DNA of 64,000 bases, taken from sequence record OP114734.1. One strand, given 5' to 3'. The notes beneath the pieces were generated by a model. The model was not told where the DNA came from. It saw nothing but the letters and a program-made list of their open reading frames with translations, and searched no databases. Positions 4,125 to 35,574 of the stretch are shown here, piece after piece. This stretch comes from Escherichia phage vB_ESM-pEJ01. A program made the position numbers and the translations under genes. Each line of letters opens with the position of its first letter. Positions within the stretch are counted from its first letter, which is position 1.

Positions 4125-4523
4125 TTAACTTTCCAGAATATCGCGAGCTTCGTTACGCTCCTTGATGATTTTCAGGACAAATTCCAGTTTTTCTTTGTTC
4201 AGCGTTCCATTTTCCATTGCTTCTTTGACGGTAAACACTCCGCCACCTTGCCCGTATACAGTGACAGTGATTTCACCTAACATCGTGGTATGAAAACCTC
4301 CAATTTTCGGTGATTCGAAAGAAACAATTACCTCGCGGACAGTATTACCGTCGTTGATTTCTGAGAGGGTAATGTCGTTTTTGTAGGCGGTTGCTTTAAC
4401 CATACGGATCAGCATAGTCTGATCTGGGGAGATGGTCATTTTGTCCATTGCATGTTGCAATGCAGCGTAACCGAAAACTTTAACGAAGTCCAGAACGTCT
4501 TTGCGAGTTTGAAATTTAATCAT
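4125..4523 (-). CDS. hypothetical protein
   Basis: 132 aa; own promoter (4557..4585) and SD AAGGAG 7 nt upstream; terminator downstream. Confidence 0.55.
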   Translation of the reverse strand: MIKFQTRKDVLDFVKVFGYAALQHAMDKMTISPDQTMLIRMVKATAYKNDITLSEINDGNTVREVIVSFESPKIGGFHTTMLGEITVTVYGQGGGVFTVKEAMENGTLNKEKLEFVLKIIKERNEARDILES

Positions 4524-4556
4524 CTTGATACTCCTTAGTTGTTTTGGTATGGGAGT

Positions 4557-4585
4557 ATCTTACTACTCCCGTGATATGCTGTCAA
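4557..4585 (-). promoter_or_regulatory. sigma70-like early promoter (TTGACA-17-TAAGAT) with -10 in hairpin loop
   Basis: minus-strand TTGACA at 4580-4585, 17 nt spacer, TAAGAT at 4557-4562; hairpin GGGAGTA/TACTCCC encloses the -10. Confidence 0.55.
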
Positions 4586-4743: not shown

Positions 4744-4783
4744 TTGATTCTCCTTAAAGTGTATTTCGTTTCGATGGGGGGGT

Positions 4784-4812
4784 ATATTACTACCCCCGTT
4801 TCATGCTGTCAA
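4784..4812 (-). promoter_or_regulatory. sigma70-like early promoter (TTGACA-17-TAATAT) with GGGGG/CCCCC hairpin
   Basis: same cassette architecture as 4557..4585. Confidence 0.5.
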
Positions 4813-5420: not shown

Positions 5421-5897
5421 TTAATCATGACCGTGATTTGCAATATCCGCTCGCGTCTTATCTTTGTGATTTCCTACGTCAAAGACACGATAACCATTTT
5501 CACGCAAAACTTTAATCACTTCTGGGTTATCCTCAAAGACTCCGACAACTTCATCTTTATCAAAGGATTTAATTACCTCTAATTTGATGTGATAGTCTTT
5601 ACGGGAATCGGTACGGCCTCTCATAAAGATTTTATCAAAACACACCCCGTTAGAAATTAACCAATCAATTGTTTCCATGTAAGCATGTGAACTTCGTCCG
5701 GTGAGGATGTAAATCAAATGCCCGTTGTCGGAAAGAGCATTAATAACACGAATTACATCGTAAATGGGGGAATCTCCCCCACATGCCTTGTTATATTCGA
5801 TCCATGACTCGACTTTATCAAGATTTTCGGTTGGCATCTTTGCTAGTCGATGTGTTGGATCTGTGATCGTAAAATCTAAATCGACAAAATATATCAT
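5421..5897 (-). CDS. HAD-family phosphatase (putative nucleotidase)
   Basis: 158 aa; N-terminal DLDFTITD (DxDxT) HAD motif; sits just after nrdB. Confidence 0.55.
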   Translation of the reverse strand: MIYFVDLDFTITDPTHRLAKMPTENLDKVESWIEYNKACGGDSPIYDVIRVINALSDNGHLIYILTGRSSHAYMETIDWLISNGVCFDKIFMRGRTDSRKDYHIKLEVIKSFDKDEVVGVFEDNPEVIKVLRENGYRVFDVGNHKDKTRADIANHGHD

Positions 5898-7081
5898 AGA
5901 TATTTCCCGAATCGGTTGTAGTCATCGTCTGTTAAATCGGTATTAACCTGAGATACCAGATACATAATCTCTACTTCCTGCGCTGCATTCTGTACTTCGT
6001 CAGAGTTCAACCATTTACGCATCCACGGTAACGGATGACGACGAACACTAAACTGGCTTTTCAGTCCGGCAGCACGCATACGGGAATCTGCCAGGTATTC
6101 TACATAGGTTTTCAGAATTTCCGGCGACAGGTTAGGAATTGCCCCCATTGCGAATAAGTGATCTACCCATTCTTTTTCTTGCTCGACAACATCCAGAAAG
6201 ATTTTCGTTGCTTCGCCTTCAAGTTCTTCCGCAATCTGTTTCCACTCATCACCATCAGCCCCCGTTTGCCATTGACGAATAATGTATTGTGTGCCTTTTA
6301 AGTGAAGTTGTTCATCACGCGCAATAAATTTCATGATCTTCGCGTTACCTTCCAGTAAACCACGTTCGGCAAAGCTGAAAGTACATGCAAAGGACACATA
6401 AAAACGTATTGCTTCCAGTGCATTTACGCAGTGTGCACACAGATAAATCGAAGCCATCAGATCTCGTTTTGTATCTTCAAAAAATCTTCTTGCATCATCT
6501 AATTCTGTCTGATCGTCTCGTTCTTCCCAATAGTGGTGGAGAACTTCTTCTTCCCAATAGCGGAGATCTTCTTTTGCATTCTCATACTTACGAATCCAAT
6601 AGAGAACATCATCATAATATTTCCCGATAGATTCCGCTCGCTTCATGATAGCAGGGTTATCGATGATCTGGTCGAACTCACTAGCCGGATCAATGAAACA
6701 GTTACGCATAATGTGTGTATAGCTTCGGCTATGAATCGTTTCGCTGAATGTCCATGTTTGCAACCATGTATCGAGAGTTGGATCAGATACAATTGGACCA
6801 AATGCTGCGGACGGTGCGCGACCTTGAATAGAATCAAGTAATGTCTGATACTTCAAGTTTTCGGTAAAGAAACGCTTTTCAACGTCACCCATATTAAGAT
6901 ATTGAATGCGGTCGGTTGCAAGTGAAATCTCTTCTGGACGCCAGAAAAATGACAATTGCTTTTCGATCAGTTCTTCAAATACTTGATGACGCTGAATATC
7001 ATAGCGAGCGATACCCAACCCACTACCCAGAAACATTGGTTCGTTCATAATATCAACATGTTCGCGGTTAAATACGCTCAT
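5894..7081 (-). CDS. nrdB: ribonucleotide reductase beta subunit
   Basis: 395 aa; di-iron RNR small-subunit features; downstream of nrdA as in T4; SD GTGAGGTG. Confidence 0.9.
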   Translation of the reverse strand: MSVFNREHVDIMNEPMFLGSGLGIARYDIQRHQVFEELIEKQLSFFWRPEEISLATDRIQYLNMGDVEKRFFTENLKYQTLLDSIQGRAPSAAFGPIVSDPTLDTWLQTWTFSETIHSRSYTHIMRNCFIDPASEFDQIIDNPAIMKRAESIGKYYDDVLYWIRKYENAKEDLRYWEEEVLHHYWEERDDQTELDDARRFFEDTKRDLMASIYLCAHCVNALEAIRFYVSFACTFSFAERGLLEGNAKIMKFIARDEQLHLKGTQYIIRQWQTGADGDEWKQIAEELEGEATKIFLDVVEQEKEWVDHLFAMGAIPNLSPEILKTYVEYLADSRMRAAGLKSQFSVRRHPLPWMRKWLNSDEVQNAAQEVEIMYLVSQVNTDLTDDDYNRFGKYL

Positions 7082-27875: not shown

Positions 27876-28115
27876 ATGGTCTATAATATCGTCATTGGTG
27901 CTTTGTCTAATTTCGGAATGAAATTATTGTCAAAGTTAATTAGTGAAAAGATGCTCACTAAAATTTTCTTCTATTGCGCTCGTCGTCTTGCGGCTTATAC
28001 CAATACGCCAATTGATGATCGTTTTGTGGAAGAACTTTATAAGGAGTTTAATAAAGATCAGTCAGAAGATAGTAACGAGCAAGATAAACCTAGTGATAGT
28101 CAACTACCTAAATAA
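27876..28115 (+). CDS. hypothetical small protein in the gene 38 position
   Basis: 79 aa; strong SD AAGGAG; hydrophobic N-terminus, acidic C-terminus; no resemblance to T4 gp38 noted. Confidence 0.45.
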   Translation: MVYNIVIGALSNFGMKLLSKLISEKMLTKIFFYCARRLAAYTNTPIDDRFVEELYKEFNKDQSEDSNEQDKPSDSQLPK

Positions 28116-28148
28116 GAGTACACTGTCATAGTTATCTTAGGGCATTAT

Positions 28149-28805
28149 ATGCAAGTTTCTGAAAAAGGGAAAGACTTTGCTATCTCAAATGTCCTGCGCG
28201 CTATTTTCACAACTAAAAGCACGGAGTTGCTCGTACTTCGTGTTTTTGCTGCCGTCGTGTTGTCCATATTAGCATTTGTCGTTTATAGTAAAAACGAGTT
28301 ATTTGCGCTTTATAAAGAGACTCGTTATGAGACTTATGCTCACATTCTCCAGGTAGAGAAAGACCGCAATTTTGATAATGCAGCACAGGAGCAGTTACAG
28401 ATAGTTCATGTGTCGGCTGATGCCGATTTTTCTGCTGTTTTTAGCTTTCGTCCGAAAAACCTAAACTATTTTGTTGATTTGGTGGCATATGAAGGAAAGC
28501 TACCGCATACGATCGATGAAAAGAATTTAGGCGGGTTCCCTATCAATAAAACGAGTGAAGAATATCGTAGGCATCTTTTAGGTAAATCATATTTTACCGA
28601 TAAAGATTTCCAGTATATTCCATCGAGGGAGAAAAAATTAGAGAATATCGATATAGGGTTTATGTATTCTTGTCCTATATTCAATCTCGATAATGTCTAT
28701 TCTGGTAGTATCGCCATTGCATGGAAGAATAAACCGGATATTGACATTGAGAATTTGGATACTCTTTGCAATCAATCTGCCAGAATCCTCGGAAGGATTA
28801 GATAA
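28149..28805 (+). CDS. t: holin
   Basis: 218 aa; LQIVHVSADADFSAVFSFRPKNLNYFVDLVAYEGKLP and C-terminal ARILGR match remembered T4 holin T. Confidence 0.9.
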   Translation: MQVSEKGKDFAISNVLRAIFTTKSTELLVLRVFAAVVLSILAFVVYSKNELFALYKETRYETYAHILQVEKDRNFDNAAQEQLQIVHVSADADFSAVFSFRPKNLNYFVDLVAYEGKLPHTIDEKNLGGFPINKTSEEYRRHLLGKSYFTDKDFQYIPSREKKLENIDIGFMYSCPIFNLDNVYSGSIAIAWKNKPDIDIENLDTLCNQSARILGRIR

Positions 28806-28810
28806 CTTAA

Positions 28811-28844
28811 AGGGGAAGCCTTTCGGCCTCCCCTTCTTTTTTAT
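28811..28844. terminator. bidirectional rho-independent terminator between convergent genes
   Basis: hairpin AGGGGAAGCC-TTTC-GGCCTCCCCT with T-run on plus side and A/T-rich tract on minus side. Confidence 0.6.
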
Positions 28845-29089
28845 TGGCGCATAGAAGCCCCTGAATCACATTTTGACGCTGTATGATGAAAACAGGTAGC
28901 GTACCAGTCATCGGCTTGTTTGTCTTCGTCAGAAAACGCGTAATTGCGTTGTATGCCGTTTTCTACTTTGACCAGTGCAATAGCTGTTTCTGGAAGATCA
29001 ATCAATCGGACAAAATCGCCATCTTCCCATTCTACACGAGCAATATCATAACCCATCTCAAAATAAACAATCGCTTGTTCTAATTTCAT
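28841..29089 (-). CDS. DUF2829-like small protein (candidate Tad2-like signal sponge)
   Basis: 82 aa; pattern ...FEMGYDIARVEW.DG.FV ... YAFSDEDKQADDWYA resembles the DUF2829 arrangement as remembered; last gene of the accessory island. Confidence 0.35.
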   Translation of the reverse strand: MKLEQAIVYFEMGYDIARVEWEDGDFVRLIDLPETAIALVKVENGIQRNYAFSDEDKQADDWYATCFHHTASKCDSGASMRQ

Positions 29090-29418
29090 TCTGGAAACTT
29101 CCCGTAAATGTTCTCTGCCAACATACGCGCATCGCTAATGATATCTTTCATGCTATGACCGTAGTGTTCAGCCATTGAGTTGACACAATCAACAAAGAAA
29201 TTATAACGGCGACGGTTTAAGATTTCTTCTCTGCTATAGTTTTCATATTTGACGGTCGAGTGTGCTTTCTCGATTGCCTTGATTGCTATATTGACTTCAT
29301 TGATAATGGTTTTAGCATTGTATGCGCCACGACGGATCAGGATATTTGTCAATTCTCTTGCAATATCTTGCAATTCTTCATATTCATGTTCAAACATAAT
29401 CAACCTCTCAAAATACAA
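29086..29418 (-). CDS. hypothetical protein
   Basis: 110 aa track ORF, tightly packed in island. Confidence 0.4.
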   Translation of the reverse strand: MYFERLIMFEHEYEELQDIARELTNILIRRGAYNAKTIINEVNIAIKAIEKAHSTVKYENYSREEILNRRRYNFFVDCVNSMAEHYGHSMKDIISDARMLAENIYGKFPE

Positions 29419-29421
29419 TCC

Positions 29422-29754
29422 TTACAGATGAAAACCTGTTACGATCACCGCATCGATCTTACCGCTAGGAATAAACGGTTCGCCCTCTTTTATTTCAACT
29501 TTGAATTGATGCCATTTCGCTAATACTTCTTCCGGTACACCCAGCGATTCGGCGTCTGCTTTAGTTTCATCCATAATCCAACTAGGCTGCATGAGAGCAT
29601 AGTTTACATAGTCCATTTCTGGGGTCATGTCATCAATGTTAATATATTTGCAGTTGACGCGTTTCAGAATTTCAAATTCTTTATTGTCAACCTGTACCAT
29701 GTATAATTCAGTAGTTTCTGGAATCAGTTCCCACACAATCAGTACATTTTTCAT
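29422..29754 (-). CDS. hypothetical protein
   Basis: 110 aa track ORF. Confidence 0.4.
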   Translation of the reverse strand: MKNVLIVWELIPETTELYMVQVDNKEFEILKRVNCKYINIDDMTPEMDYVNYALMQPSWIMDETKADAESLGVPEEVLAKWHQFKVEIKEGEPFIPSGKIDAVIVTGFHL

Positions 29755-29762
29755 AGTTCACC

Positions 29763-30131
29763 TCACTTAACAAAGATTTTCTTTAATGCTTTCAGGATCG
29801 TTGCTTCCGGCGCTTCTTCCGGTGGAGGAAGCAATTCTACCACTTCCTCTTCCAACTCGATATAGTCTACCAGATATTCTACATAGAATGCAAGTGCTTC
29901 CATGAAATTAGATGCTACATCCGATTCACCACAAGCGCCTACATGCATTGTATAAACATCACTGCGATCAAGTTTGTGGATGCTTCCCAGATAGTTTCGG
30001 TTATACCAGACTTCCCACACTTTCAGCTTTCCGGTTTTGGTTGCTGTTTTATAATCGGTTTCGTAATGATGCAATTGACGTTGCAAATCATTGATAATAA
30101 CACATTTTTCGTAATTGTTTTGAATTTCCAT
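29763..30131 (-). CDS. hypothetical protein
   Basis: 122 aa track ORF. Confidence 0.4.
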   Translation of the reverse strand: MEIQNNYEKCVIINDLQRQLHHYETDYKTATKTGKLKVWEVWYNRNYLGSIHKLDRSDVYTMHVGACGESDVASNFMEALAFYVEYLVDYIELEEEVVELLPPPEEAPEATILKALKKIFVK

Positions 30132-30141
30132 GATGTAATCC

Positions 30142-30333
30142 TCACTTATCGTTAAGAAGTTCTAAAACTTTCTGTCGTACTTTGTCAATATTAGTTGATT
30201 CAAAAACTGTACGGTATCCCCAGCTTTGACCGTATGATCGGTTGCAATCTCCATATCCCCATTGTTCAACCTGATAGTATTCAAGGAATGGATGCTGCCG
30301 AACTATGATACCATCTCTATTAAAAATTACCAT
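30142..30333 (-). CDS. hypothetical small protein
   Basis: 63 aa track ORF. Confidence 0.35.
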   Translation of the reverse strand: MVIFNRDGIIVRQHPFLEYYQVEQWGYGDCNRSYGQSWGYRTVFESTNIDKVRQKVLELLNDK

Positions 30334-30355
30334 AATATAATCCTCACGTCAAAAC

Positions 30356-30643
30356 TTATTTTCGGTTGTGGTCACGATATGTTTTAAAATATCCCTCGTA
30401 CCACGGTAAAACATCTGGATTTTTACCACTATACAGACCTTTAACCATCATGTCAATAAGGCCATCTGGTGTTTGATAGTTTCCAGCTTTTATAAGCTCT
30501 CTGATTAAAATCTCTCTGTATATGTCTTTCGGATCTTCGTAATCAACTTGTATTGTGGTTGTGGTCTCATTCAATTTGGTTTCTGGATTATCTCGCATTG
30601 CATCCCACCAATCTTTTGTGACCTTCATGTTATTGAATTGCAT
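30356..30643 (-). CDS. hypothetical protein
   Basis: 95 aa track ORF. Confidence 0.4.
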   Translation of the reverse strand: MQFNNMKVTKDWWDAMRDNPETKLNETTTTIQVDYEDPKDIYREILIRELIKAGNYQTPDGLIDMMVKGLYSGKNPDVLPWYEGYFKTYRDHNRK

Positions 30644-30654
30644 AATTTAACCTC

Positions 30655-31413
30655 TTACTTGCAAACGTATTGATCTACATCAATTGCTCCACCGAATGTA
30701 GGATGACGTTTTTCAAATCGAATAGTTCCGTCGTTTGGTTCGAAAACGGAGTATTCATATAGATCTTTCTTGCCAACATTCTTATAAAACCCGCCTTTAG
30801 TCATAACGGTTTCTTGTACGTTTGCTTTGTGTACGTTGTATTCGTCAATGTATACAAAATCAACCATCTTCCCATTTTTAATGGTTACTTTAAGATCTCC
30901 TGGTTGATTTCCATATTTGGCATACAGTGGCGCTTCTTTAATTTTTGTGGAAATTCCATCTTTCATACTCCACTCATAACGAACGGTGCATTGATAGGTA
31001 AAAGTTTCGACCTTCGGTTCTTCCACCACTTTTTCTTCCTGTTTCGGTTGTTCTTCTTCAACCTTCGCAGAAGTCTCTGAATCGCTTTCTGACGCGGTTT
31101 CTTCTTTAGGTAATACATTCATCAAGTTTTGGATTTGAGCGTTGTATACAGCCTCCAGTGGCTGAATCTGCCCGATATTGATCATTGTATCACGAACAGT
31201 TTTATTCCAGTTGCGTTGCTCTTGTTTAAGAGACGGATCAATCTTAACAGCCTTAACATACACCTCATGAAGTTTCGAATCCAGTGCTGAGATTGACTCA
31301 TTAGCACAAATAAACTTCTCTGATTTGGTAGTGGCTTTAGCGCAATCAAAGGACGCAGCATTAGCACCGAAAGCAGTAGCGGAAATAACGATAGCAGCGA
31401 TAATGTTTTTCAT
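30655..31413 (-). CDS. secreted protein with LprI-like (DUF1311, lysozyme-inhibitor-like) N-terminal domain
   Basis: 252 aa; signal peptide MKNIIAAIVISATAFGANA; FDCAKATTKSEKFICANESISALDSKL...QRNW motif; SD GAGGAA and promoter 31448..31476. Confidence 0.5.
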   Translation of the reverse strand: MKNIIAAIVISATAFGANAASFDCAKATTKSEKFICANESISALDSKLHEVYVKAVKIDPSLKQEQRNWNKTVRDTMINIGQIQPLEAVYNAQIQNLMNVLPKEETASESDSETSAKVEEEQPKQEEKVVEEPKVETFTYQCTVRYEWSMKDGISTKIKEAPLYAKYGNQPGDLKVTIKNGKMVDFVYIDEYNVHKANVQETVMTKGGFYKNVGKKDLYEYSVFEPNDGTIRFEKRHPTFGGAIDVDQYVCK

Positions 31414-31447
31414 AATATATTCCTCAATGTTTTGTCTTGATGGGAGT

Positions 31448-31476
31448 ATCTTACTACTCCCTTAATCCGGTGTCAA
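31448..31476 (-). promoter_or_regulatory. sigma70-like promoter (TTGACA-17-TAAGAT) with -10 in hairpin loop
   Basis: hairpin GGGAGTATCTTACTACTCCC identical to the one at 4551..4570. Confidence 0.55.
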
Positions 31477-31483
31477 CTACTTT

Positions 31484-31696
31484 TTAATTTTTACCCGCTC
31501 GTGCATTAATACGCATTTTCTGCATAGCCATAATCTGGTTTACTGCTTCTTCTTTGCGTTTTTGCGTGATAACGTGACCAGATTCCGCAAACTCTCCCGC
31601 AACTTCTTCTACGATCTCGCGAACTTGAGAACGTCCAAAGATGCGGTTTCCTTCGTAGCTCATAAATTCAGTCACTACTTGCTCAATAGATTTCAT
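31484..31696 (-). CDS. hypothetical small protein
   Basis: 70 aa; promoter 31731..31759 upstream. Confidence 0.4.
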   Translation of the reverse strand: MKSIEQVVTEFMSYEGNRIFGRSQVREIVEEVAGEFAESGHVITQKRKEEAVNQIMAMQKMRINARAGKN

Positions 31697-31730
31697 GTGA
31701 TTCTCCTTCTTTCGTTTCGGTGTGGGAGTA

Positions 31731-31759
31731 TGTTAATACTCCCATTTCTTTACGTCAAC
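31731..31759 (-). promoter_or_regulatory. sigma70-like promoter (TTGACG-17-TAACAT) with hairpin
   Basis: hairpin GGGAGTATGTTAATACTCCC around the -10. Confidence 0.5.
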
Positions 31760-31761
31760 AA

Positions 31762-31923
31762 CTATTTTAAATTATTTTCGACCTTCATCCATTCCGCGTA
31801 TTCTTGCGCGGCTACTTTCGGATTTAGTCCGTCTTCGTACATTGCTTCAAGTAATTCTTCGTCGGTGGGCTTATACCCTAGATAAGCCTCCACCTGATTT
31901 TTCCAAATTTTATACCAGTTCAT
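31762..31923 (-). CDS. hypothetical small protein
   Basis: 53 aa from MNWYKIW; ATG at 31923 follows the stop of the upstream gene; track ORF 5' extension overlaps that gene. Confidence 0.35.
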   Translation of the reverse strand: MNWYKIWKNQVEAYLGYKPTDEELLEAMYEDGLNPKVAAQEYAEWMKVENNLK

Positions 31924-31927
31924 ATTA

Positions 31928-32200
31928 TCACCAGTCAAGAGCGCGTGTCTCTGCGTCTTCCCATGCTTGATCCATAACAGCCTTGAAAACATATTCTAAA
32001 GTATCATCTTTAGAGAATCCGAAGACCTTAGACGGAATATCTTCAATTGCTACTCCCGCGACTTCTGCATTACGCGCTTGGCAATAATGCAACTCTAAGT
32101 TATCGAGATAGCGACCGCCTAATTTCTCCATATCATCCCAGCATTTCCAGTAACCTACTTTATTTGCAATCGCTAACACCTTGCTGTTTTCGTTGTTCAT
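31928..32200 (-). CDS. hypothetical protein
   Basis: 90 aa from MNNENSKV; SD AAGGAG; promoter 32232..32260 upstream. Confidence 0.45.
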   Translation of the reverse strand: MNNENSKVLAIANKVGYWKCWDDMEKLGGRYLDNLELHYCQARNAEVAGVAIEDIPSKVFGFSKDDTLEYVFKAVMDQAWEDAETRALDW

Positions 32201-32231
32201 CTTTGATTCTCCTTTTGTTTGGTATGGGAGT

Positions 32232-32260
32232 ATGTTACTACTCCCTTGTTCTGGTGTCAA
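32232..32260 (-). promoter_or_regulatory. sigma70-like promoter (TTGACA-17-TAACAT) with hairpin
   Basis: hairpin GGGAGTATGTTACTACTCCC around the -10. Confidence 0.5.
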
Positions 32261-32266
32261 TAGACT

Positions 32267-32473
32267 TTATTCGATTATTTCAAATTTTGCTACCGGATCA
32301 CCGTTTCGTTTGGTTGCAGTAAGTTGTTGTTTGTCAAAGTAAAACCAAATATAGTCACCATGAACTACATCAAATGTGTTTCCGCTATTGTCCGTGAATA
32401 AATCAACATCATAATCACACCCAACACTAAAGCTATAATTGATGTGATCGGTTTCAATGCAACGTACTTTCAT
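32267..32473 (-). CDS. small protein, paralog of 4813..5031
   Basis: 68 aa from MKVRCIETDH; C-terminal ...GDPVAKFEIIE similar to ...GRKVAKFELVIKK; promoter 32505..32533. Confidence 0.45.
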   Translation of the reverse strand: MKVRCIETDHINYSFSVGCDYDVDLFTDNSGNTFDVVHGDYIWFYFDKQQLTATKRNGDPVAKFEIIE

Positions 32474-32504
32474 TTTTGAATCTCCTTTTTGTTTCACTGT
32501 GTGT

Positions 32505-32533
32505 ATTATGCAATGCTGGATTATGGAAGTCAA
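32505..32533 (-). promoter_or_regulatory. sigma70-like promoter (TTGACT-17-CATAAT)
   Basis: canonical spacing upstream of ORF 32267..32473. Confidence 0.45.
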
Positions 32534-32586
32534 ACAACTTTTTAAAATAAAAAAAAGCCGACCACAAGGATCGGCTTAATAATCAG

Positions 32587-32982
32587 TTACTTACTAAATT
32601 TCTTTTTGGCTTCGTCTACTGCATGAGATGCTAGTACCGCTGCCGCATGTGCACTTTTATCTGTGTTGCAGAGAACACCCAGATAAACATCACGCCAAAG
32701 TTTAATCATCTCATAGATCATATCAATATCATTTTCTTGTTTGTTGGCGATGCTATTCGTTGTTATCTGGTAAGGTAACGGCTTTATCTGTACTGGTTCC
32801 GCCATCGGGCTAATCGGTTTCGGATCAGTCATAATAGGTGCTGTTGTGGGTGGTGTTTTCCATACGTCATTATTCCACGGTTTAATCGTTGTATCGTAAA
32901 GTTTATAAGGATTTTTGTCTGGATCAACCATCCATGCATGATGGATACCTAAACCATTTGAAGTGATGCGTCGTTCATTCAT
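32587..32982 (-). CDS. hypothetical protein
   Basis: 131 aa track ORF. Confidence 0.4.
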   Translation of the reverse strand: MNERRITSNGLGIHHAWMVDPDKNPYKLYDTTIKPWNNDVWKTPPTTAPIMTDPKPISPMAEPVQIKPLPYQITTNSIANKQENDIDMIYEMIKLWRDVYLGVLCNTDKSAHAAAVLASHAVDEAKKKFSK

Positions 32983-33187
32983 GTTTTACCCCCTCTGATA
33001 ATTCTTTCATCAAGCTGTCGATCTTTGCTCTGTGTTCTGGCGTGTTTGTCATCTCTGCTAATTTGCTCAGAGATTCACTGGTGATCCGGTTGGATTCTTC
33101 CAGTGTTTCAACGACAATTGGAACAATCTTTTTATTGTTGTACAGAAATGCAATATAACCGTCTTCTGGATATTCTTTCATAATCAA
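32975..33187 (-). CDS. hypothetical small protein
   Basis: 70 aa track ORF immediately downstream of gene 52. Confidence 0.4.
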   Translation of the reverse strand: MIMKEYPEDGYIAFLYNNKKIVPIVVETLEESNRITSESLSKLAEMTNTPEHRAKIDSLMKELSEGVKHE

Positions 33188-34545
33188 CCCTTCTTAAGTT
33201 CTTTAAGATCTTTCTTATATTCCTTCATTGCGGTCGTCTTTGTCCAATACTCATATTCACTATGATGTTTCTCGGCATCTTTGACCAGTCGATCATACTC
33301 TTCTTGAGTAACGCTATACAATGGCATAGAAACTAGCTTATCGGCGTATGGACGCAGTTTTTCATGTCCATTGATGGATTGCATTACCTCGTCCTTTTTC
33401 TTTCCCTGTAGCTCGATTTCGCCCTTAATTACGCGATCGATAAATTCGGCTTTAGCCATTGCATAATTGTATGCTTCCAGCGTTTCCGCTTGCATCAATT
33501 CAATGCGTTTATCGACATACCCTAATCGGATTTCGACGAATCGACGGATCAGATCGCTCGCTTTCTCGAATACTTCTACTAAACCACGTTCGTTAACTAC
33601 TACGATATTCTGGGCTACTAACTGCGTTAGTTTAAAATCCTTCATGATTTGCTCATGTCGAGCGGATTCATCTTCGCTTTTGAAATAATCGCGTTTCAGT
33701 GTTACTTCAAATCTGAATCCGTCCTTAGAGCAACGGTCATTATACGATACAATCAGATCTTTTTCTTCCAGTGCATCCAGTACCGCTACATATTCTTCAC
33801 GGTCGAACTTATAAGGAACTTCTGATATTGTCAGTTTAGTCTTGCCGTTTAGTTCATATGTACCCTCAAGAATCACACCATCGCGATCATCTCGCGGGAT
33901 AACTTTACCTGTGAATTTCGGGAATTGAACACTAGGTTCTTTATCCAGTTTTCCGGTAAGTGCTAGCTCTGTGCATTCAATAAGGCTTTCCAGTGAATGC
34001 GGTAAAATGTCAGTTTTATACCCTGTAGCAATACCACTAATACCATTAGCCAATACCATTGGCACAACTGGCAAGTAGAAAGCTGGCGGGATGTGTTCCA
34101 GATCTTCGTGCTTAGGTGCGCAATTCATATCTTTATAGATTTTAAAGAAGTTTTCATGCACACGAGCAAAGATATAACGTGCCGCACCTGCTTTCTGGAC
34201 TAAACGCGATCCGAAGTTACCTTGACCGTCAAGCAGTGGAGTATTATTGCTCCATGTATTCGCCATGAGTGATCCGGCTTCTACGGCATTAGTTTCGCCG
34301 TGGTGATAACCCAACTCGGCAACACCAGATCCAATATCTGCCATCTTACGGAATTTCTTACGGTCGCCTTTACTCTTTTGAAGTGCGCACTCCATAACAA
34401 AGCGTTGCACTGGTTTAAGCCCATCCACTAATTGAGGAATCCCGCGTTCCTCGGCAGAATAGATCGCATATTCCTTAGCTTCATTATGTACAATGCTTTC
34501 AAGGCTGCGGTAAGTAACTGATTTATTCATCTTCACCTCATACAC
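33184..34545 (-). CDS. 52: DNA topoisomerase II medium subunit gp52
   Basis: 453 aa; GyrA-like N-terminal domain (QLVDGLKPVQRFVM..., active-site Tyr region), T4 gp52-like size. Confidence 0.88.
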   Translation of the reverse strand: MYEVKMNKSVTYRSLESIVHNEAKEYAIYSAEERGIPQLVDGLKPVQRFVMECALQKSKGDRKKFRKMADIGSGVAELGYHHGETNAVEAGSLMANTWSNNTPLLDGQGNFGSRLVQKAGAARYIFARVHENFFKIYKDMNCAPKHEDLEHIPPAFYLPVVPMVLANGISGIATGYKTDILPHSLESLIECTELALTGKLDKEPSVQFPKFTGKVIPRDDRDGVILEGTYELNGKTKLTISEVPYKFDREEYVAVLDALEEKDLIVSYNDRCSKDGFRFEVTLKRDYFKSEDESARHEQIMKDFKLTQLVAQNIVVVNERGLVEVFEKASDLIRRFVEIRLGYVDKRIELMQAETLEAYNYAMAKAEFIDRVIKGEIELQGKKKDEVMQSINGHEKLRPYADKLVSMPLYSVTQEEYDRLVKDAEKHHSEYEYWTKTTAMKEYKKDLKELKKG

Positions 34546-34900
34546 GCTTACAAATCACATTCTTTACTTTATCAGATTTATCAGCCCAATCCAATAGCCA
34601 TTTTAACGGAAGGATTGAAACAATAAACGGGGCAGCAATCAAAGCAAACATGATACACCGGATAATCAGGAAAGTGCAAGTAACAAAGCTAGCGATACTG
34701 ATCCCGACAAAACAAAATACCATAGAAAACAGAGTAATGATATAGAAAGGCCAGAATACCCACTCCCGCATCTTAACGCCTTTGTATTCCCTGAATTGCT
34801 TAAAATCTACAAACAACTCTCGGATAGACGCGTACAGGACCGAAAAATCATCTTTCATTGCTCTGAATGAGCAATCTTCTATTTTAGAATGACCTAGCAT
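34538..34900 (-). CDS. membrane protein
   Basis: 120 aa; two to three predicted TM helices. Confidence 0.4.
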   Translation of the reverse strand: MLGHSKIEDCSFRAMKDDFSVLYASIRELFVDFKQFREYKGVKMREWVFWPFYIITLFSMVFCFVGISIASFVTCTFLIIRCIMFALIAAPFIVSILPLKWLLDWADKSDKVKNVICKRV

Positions 34901-35241: not shown

Positions 35242-35574
35242 TTATTGTTCTACAGTATAACCGTTGTTTTCAAGCCATGCAATAACAATCTTTTCGCCAA
35301 TTTCATCGAGCATTTCATCAGCGCCATATTCTTTAATGAAAGTCGATGGATCATTATTGCTTACTACGTGCTGGATCACAACATGTTCAGGAATTGCGTC
35401 TAGTAGTTCGCTATGATCATACTCATTAACGATATCTTCAACACTAACATTATTAACCAAATCAACATCATCCATAGTCACAGTAACGCGACCGGACGGA
35501 CGCAATGAATATTGGCTACTTTCAACTTCAACATGTGCACTTTCGCAAGTAACTTTCATATCAACCATAATCAA
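35242..35574 (-). CDS. hypothetical acidic protein
   Basis: 110 aa track ORF just downstream of rIIB. Confidence 0.4.
   Translation of the reverse strand: MIMVDMKVTCESAHVEVESSQYSLRPSGRVTVTMDDVDLVNNVSVEDIVNEYDHSELLDAIPEHVVIQHVVSNNDPSTFIKEYGADEMLDEIGEKIVIAWLENNGYTVEQ

Follow-up and report, generated by a model that had tools for sequence, protein, structure and literature searches.

Genes and promoter-early stem-loops between holin gene t and topoisomerase gene 52 of Escherichia phage vB_ESM-pEJ01: a probable hyperplastic region of RB49-type Krischvirus

Gene content of the t-52 interval

The window analysed here is a stretch of 64,000 nucleotides (nt) of Escherichia phage vB_ESM-pEJ01 (sequence record OP114734.1), and this study concerns the 13 minus-strand open reading frames (ORFs), termed o1 to o13, which occupy positions 28841-33187 between the holin gene t and gene 52, which codes for the medium subunit of topoisomerase II. 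The interval is very probably the t-52 hyperplastic region of RB49-type Krischvirus, that is, a leftward accessory block of five units, which would be transcribed by host sigma70 and whose small genes are shuffled by promoter-early stem-loops (PeSLs). A preliminary description, made from the letters of the window, had reported 13 tightly packed minus-strand ORFs of 53 to 252 amino acids between t and 52. This arrangement could be confirmed: the coding density amounts to about 91% (arithmetic from the ORF coordinates), the gaps inside operons range from -8 to +24 nt, and all ORFs have an ATG start with a Shine-Dalgarno site (lengths in Table 1). Starts and lengths agree with the annotations of related records. 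The pooled ratio of nonsynonymous to synonymous polymorphism (pN/pS), determined against nine related genomes, lies between 0.01 and 0.33 for each of the 13 ORFs; the compared pairs are phylogenetically non-independent, so that these values are taken qualitatively only. Since they indicate purifying selection, all 13 ORFs, even the smallest ones, are considered real genes.

When the interval from 28100 to 34600 is compared with phage records, 58 of them match at 94-97% DNA identity. Judging by the record names and the records that were fetched, these belong to the genus Krischvirus, the RB49-like T4-type coliphages. In 50 records, at least 80% of the interval is covered, always as three to six separate pieces. 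Both flanking genes are recognized by Pfam profiles and by the annotations of related phages (Table 1), and in T4 these two genes enclose asiA, asiA.1, arn, arn.1-4, motA and motA.1. The flanks and the T4 gene order thus bear out the earlier statement that the block takes the position of T4 asiA/arn/motA.

Promoters, hairpins and transcription units

At least four sigma70-like promoters, each containing a hairpin, had been proposed for the block, and four were named. Their coordinates coincide with the best minus-strand sigma70 matches (32533-32505, 32260-32232, 31758-31730 and 31476-31448), which agree with the consensus at 9-10 of 12 positions and have 17-nt spacers; the hairpin, however, is present in only three of them. 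All four promoters are intergenic, correctly oriented and located 25-45 nt upstream of a Shine-Dalgarno site and an ATG, and equivalent promoters are annotated in phage GEC-3S. They are judged real because of this context and because of a palindrome common to three of them, and not because of a generic promoter scan, which is unenriched (16 found versus 20.6 expected). The palindrome, GGGAGTA-N6-TACTCCC, is a 20-nt hairpin motif located over the -10 hexamer. It occurs five times in the window versus 0.11 expected copies, each of the five is located upstream of small ORFs, and five more copies are found in the rest of RB49. The stems of the three hairpin promoters comprise 7-9 base pairs (bp) and overlap the -10 hexamer, with folding free energies of -11.9 to -14.5 kcal/mol and z-scores (z) of -3.2 to -4.7. 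The promoter at 32533-32505 contains no internal hairpin (z +1.1); a terminator hairpin lies 22 nt upstream of its -35 hexamer.

Composite elements of this kind have been described as PeSLs in phages RB49 and phi1. They consist of an AT-rich region with an upstream stop codon, consensus -35 and -10 hexamers, a stem-loop, and a Shine-Dalgarno site with a start codon; the stem-loop is most commonly located between -35 and -10 or overlaps the -10 (PMC2839356). Around 50 PeSLs per genome are concentrated in hyperplastic regions upstream of ORFans, lacZ reporters revealed promoter and attenuator activity for other PeSLs than those of the window, and it was proposed that PeSLs mediate modular shuffling by recombination (PMC2839356). 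PeSLs have been extended to other T4-like phages (PMC4122927). Aligned copies of the hairpin promoters of the window show exactly the published architecture: sigma70 hexamers around 17 nt apart in front of an ORFan, a stable stem-loop, occurrence as repeats, and a location at junctions of indels and replacements. By this architecture, the hairpin promoters can be identified as the published PeSLs of RB49 and phi1, and by analogy the copies in the window may possess promoter and attenuator activity. Two further PeSLs of the same subclass are found on the minus strand at 4551-4570 and 4778-4797, upstream of small ORFs; they combine TTGACA, a GGGAGTA/TACTCCC-type hairpin over the -10, AAGGAG and ATG, and their surroundings presumably represent another hyperplastic region.

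The block is organized in five transcription units: o13-o12, which are transcribed with gene 52, o11, o10-o9, o8 and o7-o1. The assignment of o13 and o12 to the gene 52 transcript follows from the start of o13 just behind the gene 52 stop codon and from the overlap between o12 and o13 (Table 1). The gap between o10 and o9 is 4 nt, and those of the seven-gene operon o7-o1 range from -4 to 24 nt. The terminator at 32577-32555, which ends the gene 52 transcript, is also annotated in GEC-3S, Makalu_003 and G2494. At the other end of the block, a closing bidirectional terminator had been proposed. The hairpin at 28809-28836 is indeed strong on both strands, and the annotations of GEC-3S and Makalu_003 give it as a bidirectional terminator, but its U-tract is canonical for the plus strand only, on which t is transcribed; on the minus strand, only three U follow the stem.

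Two observations can be added. The PeSL hairpins at 31722-31745 and 32226-32245, read on the plus strand, have T-rich tails and a terminator-like score, and might in addition keep late, rightward (antisense) transcription from entering the early block. Furthermore, the best sigma70 match of the interval (30456-30428, minus strand; TTGACA-17-TATAGT, 11 of 12 positions) lies inside the coding sequence of o6, around 90 nt upstream of o5, and may be an internal promoter or a chance match.

Table 1. Genes and transcription signals at the t-52 locus of phage vB_ESM-pEJ01 (positions in the window)
Feature	Position	Strand	Remarks
Holin gene t (left flank)	28149-28805	+	Late gene, convergent with the block; PF11031 Phage_holin_T, 2e-61; annotated as t in RB49 and others
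Hairpin terminator common to t and o1	28809-28836	both	-23.2 (minus) and -16.8 (plus) kcal/mol; z -4.5 and -2.6
o1	28841-29089	-	82 amino acids (aa); Tad2/DUF2829 family, candidate immune-signal sponge; last gene of the seven-gene operon
o2	29086-29397	-	103 aa; ORFan; two alleles (about 53% identity); recombination breakpoint in the 5' part
o3	29422-29754	-	110 aa; ORFan; in 9/9 genomes at 95-100% identity; phrog_4658
o4	29763-30131	-	122 aa; T4 Arn.4 homolog; at least 95% identity in 58 Krischvirus records
o5	30142-30333	-	63 aa; ORFan; in 9/9 genomes compared; phrog_6957
o6	30356-30643	-	95 aa; ORFan; two alleles (about 48-50% identity)
o7	30655-31413	-	252 aa; secreted protein, modular
PeSL of o7-o1	31414-31483	-	-35 31476-31471; -10 31453-31448; hairpin 31442-31461; indel hotspot
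o8	31484-31696	-	70 aa; ORFan; single-gene PeSL cassette
PeSL of o8	31697-31761	-	-35 31758-31753; -10 31735-31730; hairpin 31724-31743
o9	31762-31923	-	53 aa; ORFan; co-transcribed with o10; not in ECD7
o10	31928-32200	-	90 aa; ORFan; homologs in presumed T1-like siphoviruses; not in ECD7
PeSL of o10-o9	32201-32266	-	-35 32260-32255; -10 32237-32232; hairpin 32226-32245; one edge of the o11 cassette
o11	32267-32473	-	68 aa; variable cassette gene; absent from RB49, GEC-3S, MIZ4 and ECD7
o11 promoter	32505-32533	-	Sigma70-type, hairpin-less; TTGACT-17-CATAAT; module also serves o10 in RB49 and o8 in ECD7
Intrinsic terminator of the gene 52-o13-o12 transcript	32555-32577	-	9-bp stem followed by T8; -12.7 kcal/mol, z -3.65
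o12	32587-32982	-	131 aa; ORFan; Krischvirus-specific, 58/58 records; start overlaps the o13 end by 8 nt
o13	32975-33181	-	68 aa; ORFan; translationally coupled to gene 52, beginning 3 nt past its stop codon
Gene 52, topoisomerase II medium subunit (right flank)	33184-34545	-	PF00521, 5e-69; annotations of related records

Conservation and variation among Krischvirus genomes

For a comparison within the genus, nine Krischvirus genomes were fetched for the interval, and their blastn segments were mapped onto the window coordinates; in addition, five ORFs (o1, o4, o7, o10 and o12) were searched across the whole phage collection (50,697 phage records for o12). The number of genes in the interval varies from 11 in ECD7 to 19, and 10 of the 13 ORFs are common to the nine genomes. 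Throughout these genomes, o1, o3, o4, o5, o8, o10 and o12 share 83-100% identity; strongly divergent alleles are found for o2, o6, o13 and the C-terminal half of o7. Across the collection, o1, o4 and o12 were each detected in 58 Krischvirus records and o10 in 55, and o12 matched Krischvirus records alone. o7 occurs in the same Krischvirus set in the form of two alleles, and its N-terminal domain is also found in Klebsiella and Aeromonas phages. o11 was identified at 90% identity or more in only 13 phage records.

Genes are gained and lost solely within a region of around 1 kb (o8-o11) and at two indel sites, and only o9-o11 vary in their presence. Four of the five breakpoint clusters fall on promoter cassettes or their 5' untranslated regions (UTRs). 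The cluster at 31465-31491 corresponds to the o7 PeSL; here, most genomes carry an extra ORF of 156 bp (RB49 ORF263), which is flanked by a duplicated PeSL. At the o8 PeSL (31759-31780), other genomes carry insertions of one to three different small ORFs. The third cluster (32233/32470) extends from the o10 PeSL to the o11 5'UTR and delimits the o11 cassette, which is missing in RB49, GEC-3S and MIZ4. In ECD7, o9-o11 are removed between 31708 and 32477, and the junction is located in two Shine-Dalgarno regions. Alignments of the junctions further revealed that the terminator and promoter module of o11 is joined directly to o10 or o8 in RB49 and ECD7, with a crossover between the -10 hexamer and the Shine-Dalgarno site. 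From these positions, the published mechanism of PeSL-mediated deletion and insertion appears to operate at the t-52 locus. At the remaining cluster, 29211/29419 in o2, four genomes have another 5' part of o2 and two extra ORFs (RB49 256.1 and 257).

The RB49 and phi1 hyperplastic regions described by Arbiol et al. 2010 (PMC2839356) and Comeau et al. 2014 (PMC4122927) share with the t-52 interval of vB_ESM-pEJ01 the genus, the locus, the composite motif and the link to gain and loss of ORFans; ORFan263.1 of phi1, located in the t-52 interval, was named as a hyperplastic-region difference between RB49 and phi1 (PMC2839356). The ORFs of the window are found in RB49 at 92-100% amino acid identity, except for o2 (53%) and o11, which RB49 does not possess. 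Only the combination of cassettes differs: the window lacks the RB49 ORFs 256.1, 257 and 263, contains o11, and one of its four promoters is of the non-hairpin type.

Two of the cassette genes have relatives outside the T4-like phages. o10 and o11 have homologs with 38-62% identity in phages of around 45-54 kb, which infect E. coli, Shigella, Klebsiella, Citrobacter and Salmonella and which we take to be T1-like siphoviruses. Small early genes are therefore apparently exchanged across unrelated phage families with common hosts. In phage Brandy, the frames of o13 and o12 are annotated as a single ORF of 579 bp (5721-6299), which suggests a fusion or a frameshift in comparison to the two overlapping genes found elsewhere.

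The block as a whole had been regarded as one hypervariable island, in which host-takeover and anti-defence genes are kept. The location at the position of T4 asiA/arn/motA, the divergent alleles of o2, o6, o7 and o13, the occurrence of o10 and o11 in presumably T1-like, unrelated phages and the presence of one Tad2-like gene would fit with such a cassette. The accessory nature of the block and its early-type promoters are supported by our analysis; however, it is divided into five units, ten of its 13 genes are found in each of the nine genomes, and the five ORFs searched across the collection are present in 55-58 records of the genus. A comparative alignment, which the preliminary description had called for, delimited cassette variation to o9-o11 and two insertion sites and found the rest to be conserved. 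With respect to function, only o1 can be connected to anti-defence through the Tad2/DUF2829 family, whereas no match giving the other 12 genes a role in anti-defence or takeover was obtained with PADLOC, NCBIfam or Pfam. NCBIfam (first ten ORFs) and PADLOC (ten ORFs) returned no matches, the PHROGs families matched by ORFs of the block are exclusively of unknown function, and Pfam found nothing in nine alternative cassette ORFs of other Krischvirus genomes. We therefore consider it doubtful that all 13 genes form a hypervariable cassette for takeover and anti-defence.

Comparison with the asiA-motA interval of T4

The T4 asiA-arn-motA interval and the t-52 block of vB_ESM-pEJ01 share position, orientation and the character of early accessory genes beside gene 52, and in both phages a small ORF overlaps the end of gene 52 (motA.1 in T4, o13 here). 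In contrast to T4, AsiA, MotA and Arn are missing; the T4 interval serves sigma appropriation and protection against McrBC, functions which RB49-type phages do not have. The earlier finding that neither AsiA nor MotA is recognizable holds true: none of the ORFs of the block matched the Pfam families AsiA or MotA, and tblastn with T4 AsiA and MotA gave no hit at E<=1 in the window and RB49 1-130000, which together span the whole genome. Previously, a motA ortholog and a middle-promoter consensus were sought unsuccessfully in RB49, and the phages for which AsiA orthologs are listed do not include RB49 (PMC1524935).

The sole gene common to both intervals is o4. Its residues 39-95 share 29% identity with the T4 arn.4 frame (tblastn E 6e-7, blastp 3e-9), in agreement with an annotation note in RB49. 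The homology, which includes a W-x-x-W-Y...Y-L-G motif, is located upstream of the current arn.4 start, in an open frame of 110 codons (T4 locus 4128-4460, minus strand), and therefore supports the older, longer annotation of arn.4 (12.8 kDa).

Some of the small ORFs could be non-homologous substitutes of AsiA and MotA, that is, sigma70 remodelling factors which switch off or redirect early transcription. The genomic position, the lack of AsiA and MotA in Krischvirus and the AsiA-like size of o8, o13 and o2 (70, 68 and 103 amino acids) could be taken in favour of this idea. It is nevertheless very improbable: there is no similarity on the sequence or profile level, a MotA-like activator is not evidently needed, as published analyses found neither a middle-promoter consensus nor a motA ortholog in RB49 (PMC1524935), and other RNA-polymerase modifiers are annotated elsewhere in RB49 (Srd, ModB, RpbA and Alt).

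We consider it just as improbable that the block belongs to the conserved core and has housekeeping roles. Although 10 genes occur in 9/9 genomes under purifying selection, and o13-o12 are coupled to the essential topoisomerase gene, none of the ORFs except o4 has a T4 counterpart in the syntenic interval, and o12 is confined to Krischvirus. Moreover, ECD7 is a viable phage without three of the genes, and no housekeeping family was matched. The preliminary description would have been contradicted by conserved core genes with assigned housekeeping functions; the genes are conserved in the genus, yet no such assignment was found. A recently acquired foreign mobile island can hardly be assumed, since the GC content (0.36-0.42) shows no discontinuity to that of the flanks (0.37-0.45), neither an integrase, a transposase nor a terminal repeat is present, the block is located at the same site in 58/58 Krischvirus records and exchange takes place gene by gene and not en bloc, even though some cassette genes have siphovirus homologs and the N-terminal half of o7 shares around 95% DNA identity with an E. 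coli prophage gene.

Some further searches concern the surroundings of the block. The late promoter of T4 type, TATAAATA, has no exact match on either strand between 28000 and 35000, even upstream of the late gene t, whose promoter may be located further upstream or differ from the T4 consensus. Rfam detected no RNA family within the block. A sub-threshold Rfam match to the S15 ribosomal leader (35407-35499, minus strand; 25.5 bits versus a gathering score of 39.5, E 0.011) lies outside of the block, within a small ORF downstream of gene 52, and is probably due to chance.

o1, a candidate Tad2-type sponge

Proteins of the Tad2 type sequester Thoeris signals, and different homologs also bind the nucleotides of CBASS or Pycsar. 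Tad2 of phage SPO1 forms a homotetramer with two ligand pockets between the protomers, which are lined by W25, N26, W73 and D79. o1 matches the DUF2829/Tad2-like profile PF11195 over positions 1-71 of 73, and its predicted model shows the Tad2 fold, that is, an N-terminal helix and, behind it, an antiparallel sheet of five strands whose loops contain short helices. The invariant residues W21, Y50, S53 and D56 of o1 could correspond to the pocket residues of SPO1 Tad2, going by their spacing alone. By analogy to characterized Tad2 proteins, o1 may thus be a sponge that captures a nucleotide immune signal.

Several points speak against this assignment. The profile score of 27.9 bits is marginal (cut-off 25), and the homologs P0004 and P0005 reach similarly marginal scores of 26.1 and 25.5 bits. 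The model has a moderate confidence (predicted local distance difference test value of 70.7), and a Foldseek search with it gave nothing significant. Unlike SPO1 Tad2, which uses an alpha2 helix for dimerisation, the o1 model lacks alpha2. Searches of PDB sequences with o1, with a profile of five members and with a DUF2829 homolog from a Klebsiella phage yielded nothing, so that residues could not be aligned to a solved Tad2.

The o1 subfamily is small and very divergent from SPO1 Tad2, ModTad2, HgmTad2 and AcrIIA7: including o1, five small full-length proteins were found among 1.8 billion representatives. Attempts to enlarge the family with word-indexed sequence and profile searches, HMMER on the 1.8 billion representatives and IMG/VR recovered only the Krischvirus copies and two to three divergent metagenomic proteins. 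Long multi-stretch HMMER hits were discarded as spurious, as they were Fn3-repeat proteins. The supplements of a 2025 sponge survey contain no o1 sequence and no Krischvirus entry, and no paper linking RB49-type phages to Tad2 was found in the literature.

o7, a modular secreted protein

o7 consists of a signal peptide, a helical DUF1311/LprI domain, an acidic disordered linker and a hypervariable, disulfide-bridged beta-barrel. The assignment to LprI/DUF1311 (PF07007) is based on the helical domain, the conserved cysteines and the predicted export. Across 14 homologs, residues 1 to around 115 are almost invariant, and the C-terminal 115 residues or so retain only two cysteines and one glycine; the near-invariant half comprises the signal peptide, the DUF1311 domain and the beginning of the acidic linker. 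The domain boundary is also a recombination breakpoint within Krischvirus, as the alignment with GEC-3S breaks off at 30673 and resumes at 31012. Outside the phages, a chromosomal gene present in 26 of 5,426 complete E. coli genomes shares 94-96% identity with the first 408 nt of o7, beyond which the similarity ends. In strain H2, in which the surroundings were examined, the o7-like gene is located at the edge of a prophage beside hicAB; a second E. coli assembly carries a different allele of the C-terminal barrel in the same gene neighbourhood (o7-like loci: L012 9001-9771; L013/L014 6001-6780).

The nearest known proteins are M. tuberculosis LprI, in which a DUF1311/LprI domain occurs together with an MliC beta-barrel lysozyme inhibitor, and periplasmic inhibitors of the PliC/ACP type. 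A TKG tripeptide in the o7 barrel, which resembles the MliC motif, was dismissed, as it is not conserved among the alleles. We infer that o7 acts in the periplasm, where the conserved DUF1311 module would present the diversifying beta-barrel. A search with T4 sp revealed no Spackle homolog in Krischvirus. A periplasmic role in exclusion is therefore conceivable. As a speculation that we hold to be rather unlikely, o7 could represent an undescribed periplasmic family of phages and prophages, in which a near-invariant exported DUF1311 module is combined with an interchangeable, diversifying barrel. Virulent T4-like phages and temperate E. coli prophages would exchange the barrel at the acidic linker, and the family would serve exclusion or immunity, directed at a periplasmic target that varies; one candidate for this target is the tail lysozyme of superinfecting phages, which would make o7 a functional analogue of T4 Spackle.

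A model for the t-52 region and its significance

Taken together, the locus very probably functions as a hyperplastic region as outlined at the beginning. In the proposed mechanism, the PeSL is a repeated cassette of around 70 nt, which contains an AT-rich stop region, TTGACA, a hairpin of 7-9 bp over the -10, and AAGGAG with ATG, and which would provide each gene cassette with its own early promoter. At the same time, PeSLs would serve as portable homology, so that recombination between them could delete, insert or swap small genes. Together with allelic replacement in o2, o6, o13 and the C-terminal domain of o7, this process would produce the mosaic seen among related phages. The products of the block would be dispensable accessory proteins rather than replacements of AsiA or MotA.

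Four points weigh against parts of this model. The early timing of the genes is deduced from promoter type and literature only. The PeSL hairpins have no U-tract on the minus strand, and their role as attenuators is transferred from the published reporter assay of a different PeSL. For ten of the 13 proteins, neither Pfam nor PHROGs provides a function. Finally, the breakpoint cluster at 29211/29419 is located away from any PeSL, and recombination at PeSLs therefore leaves part of the variation unexplained.

Earlier publications have already described the locus, the promoter-hairpin cassettes, the part that these play in shuffling, and the lack of MotA and AsiA in RB49-type phages. New are the permutation of cassettes in this isolate and two leads, the Tad2-like o1 and o7, a modular gene in common with prophages. 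Phage-therapy cocktails make use of Krischviruses, and the t-52 region differs between otherwise near-identical isolates. o1, which is conserved under very strong constraint, may enable these phages to escape E. coli defences that signal through nucleotides, and o7, which is exchanged with prophages, could affect superinfection or lysis behaviour. The practical value of the analysis thus lies in a short list of genes, of which o1 and o7 merit bench work.

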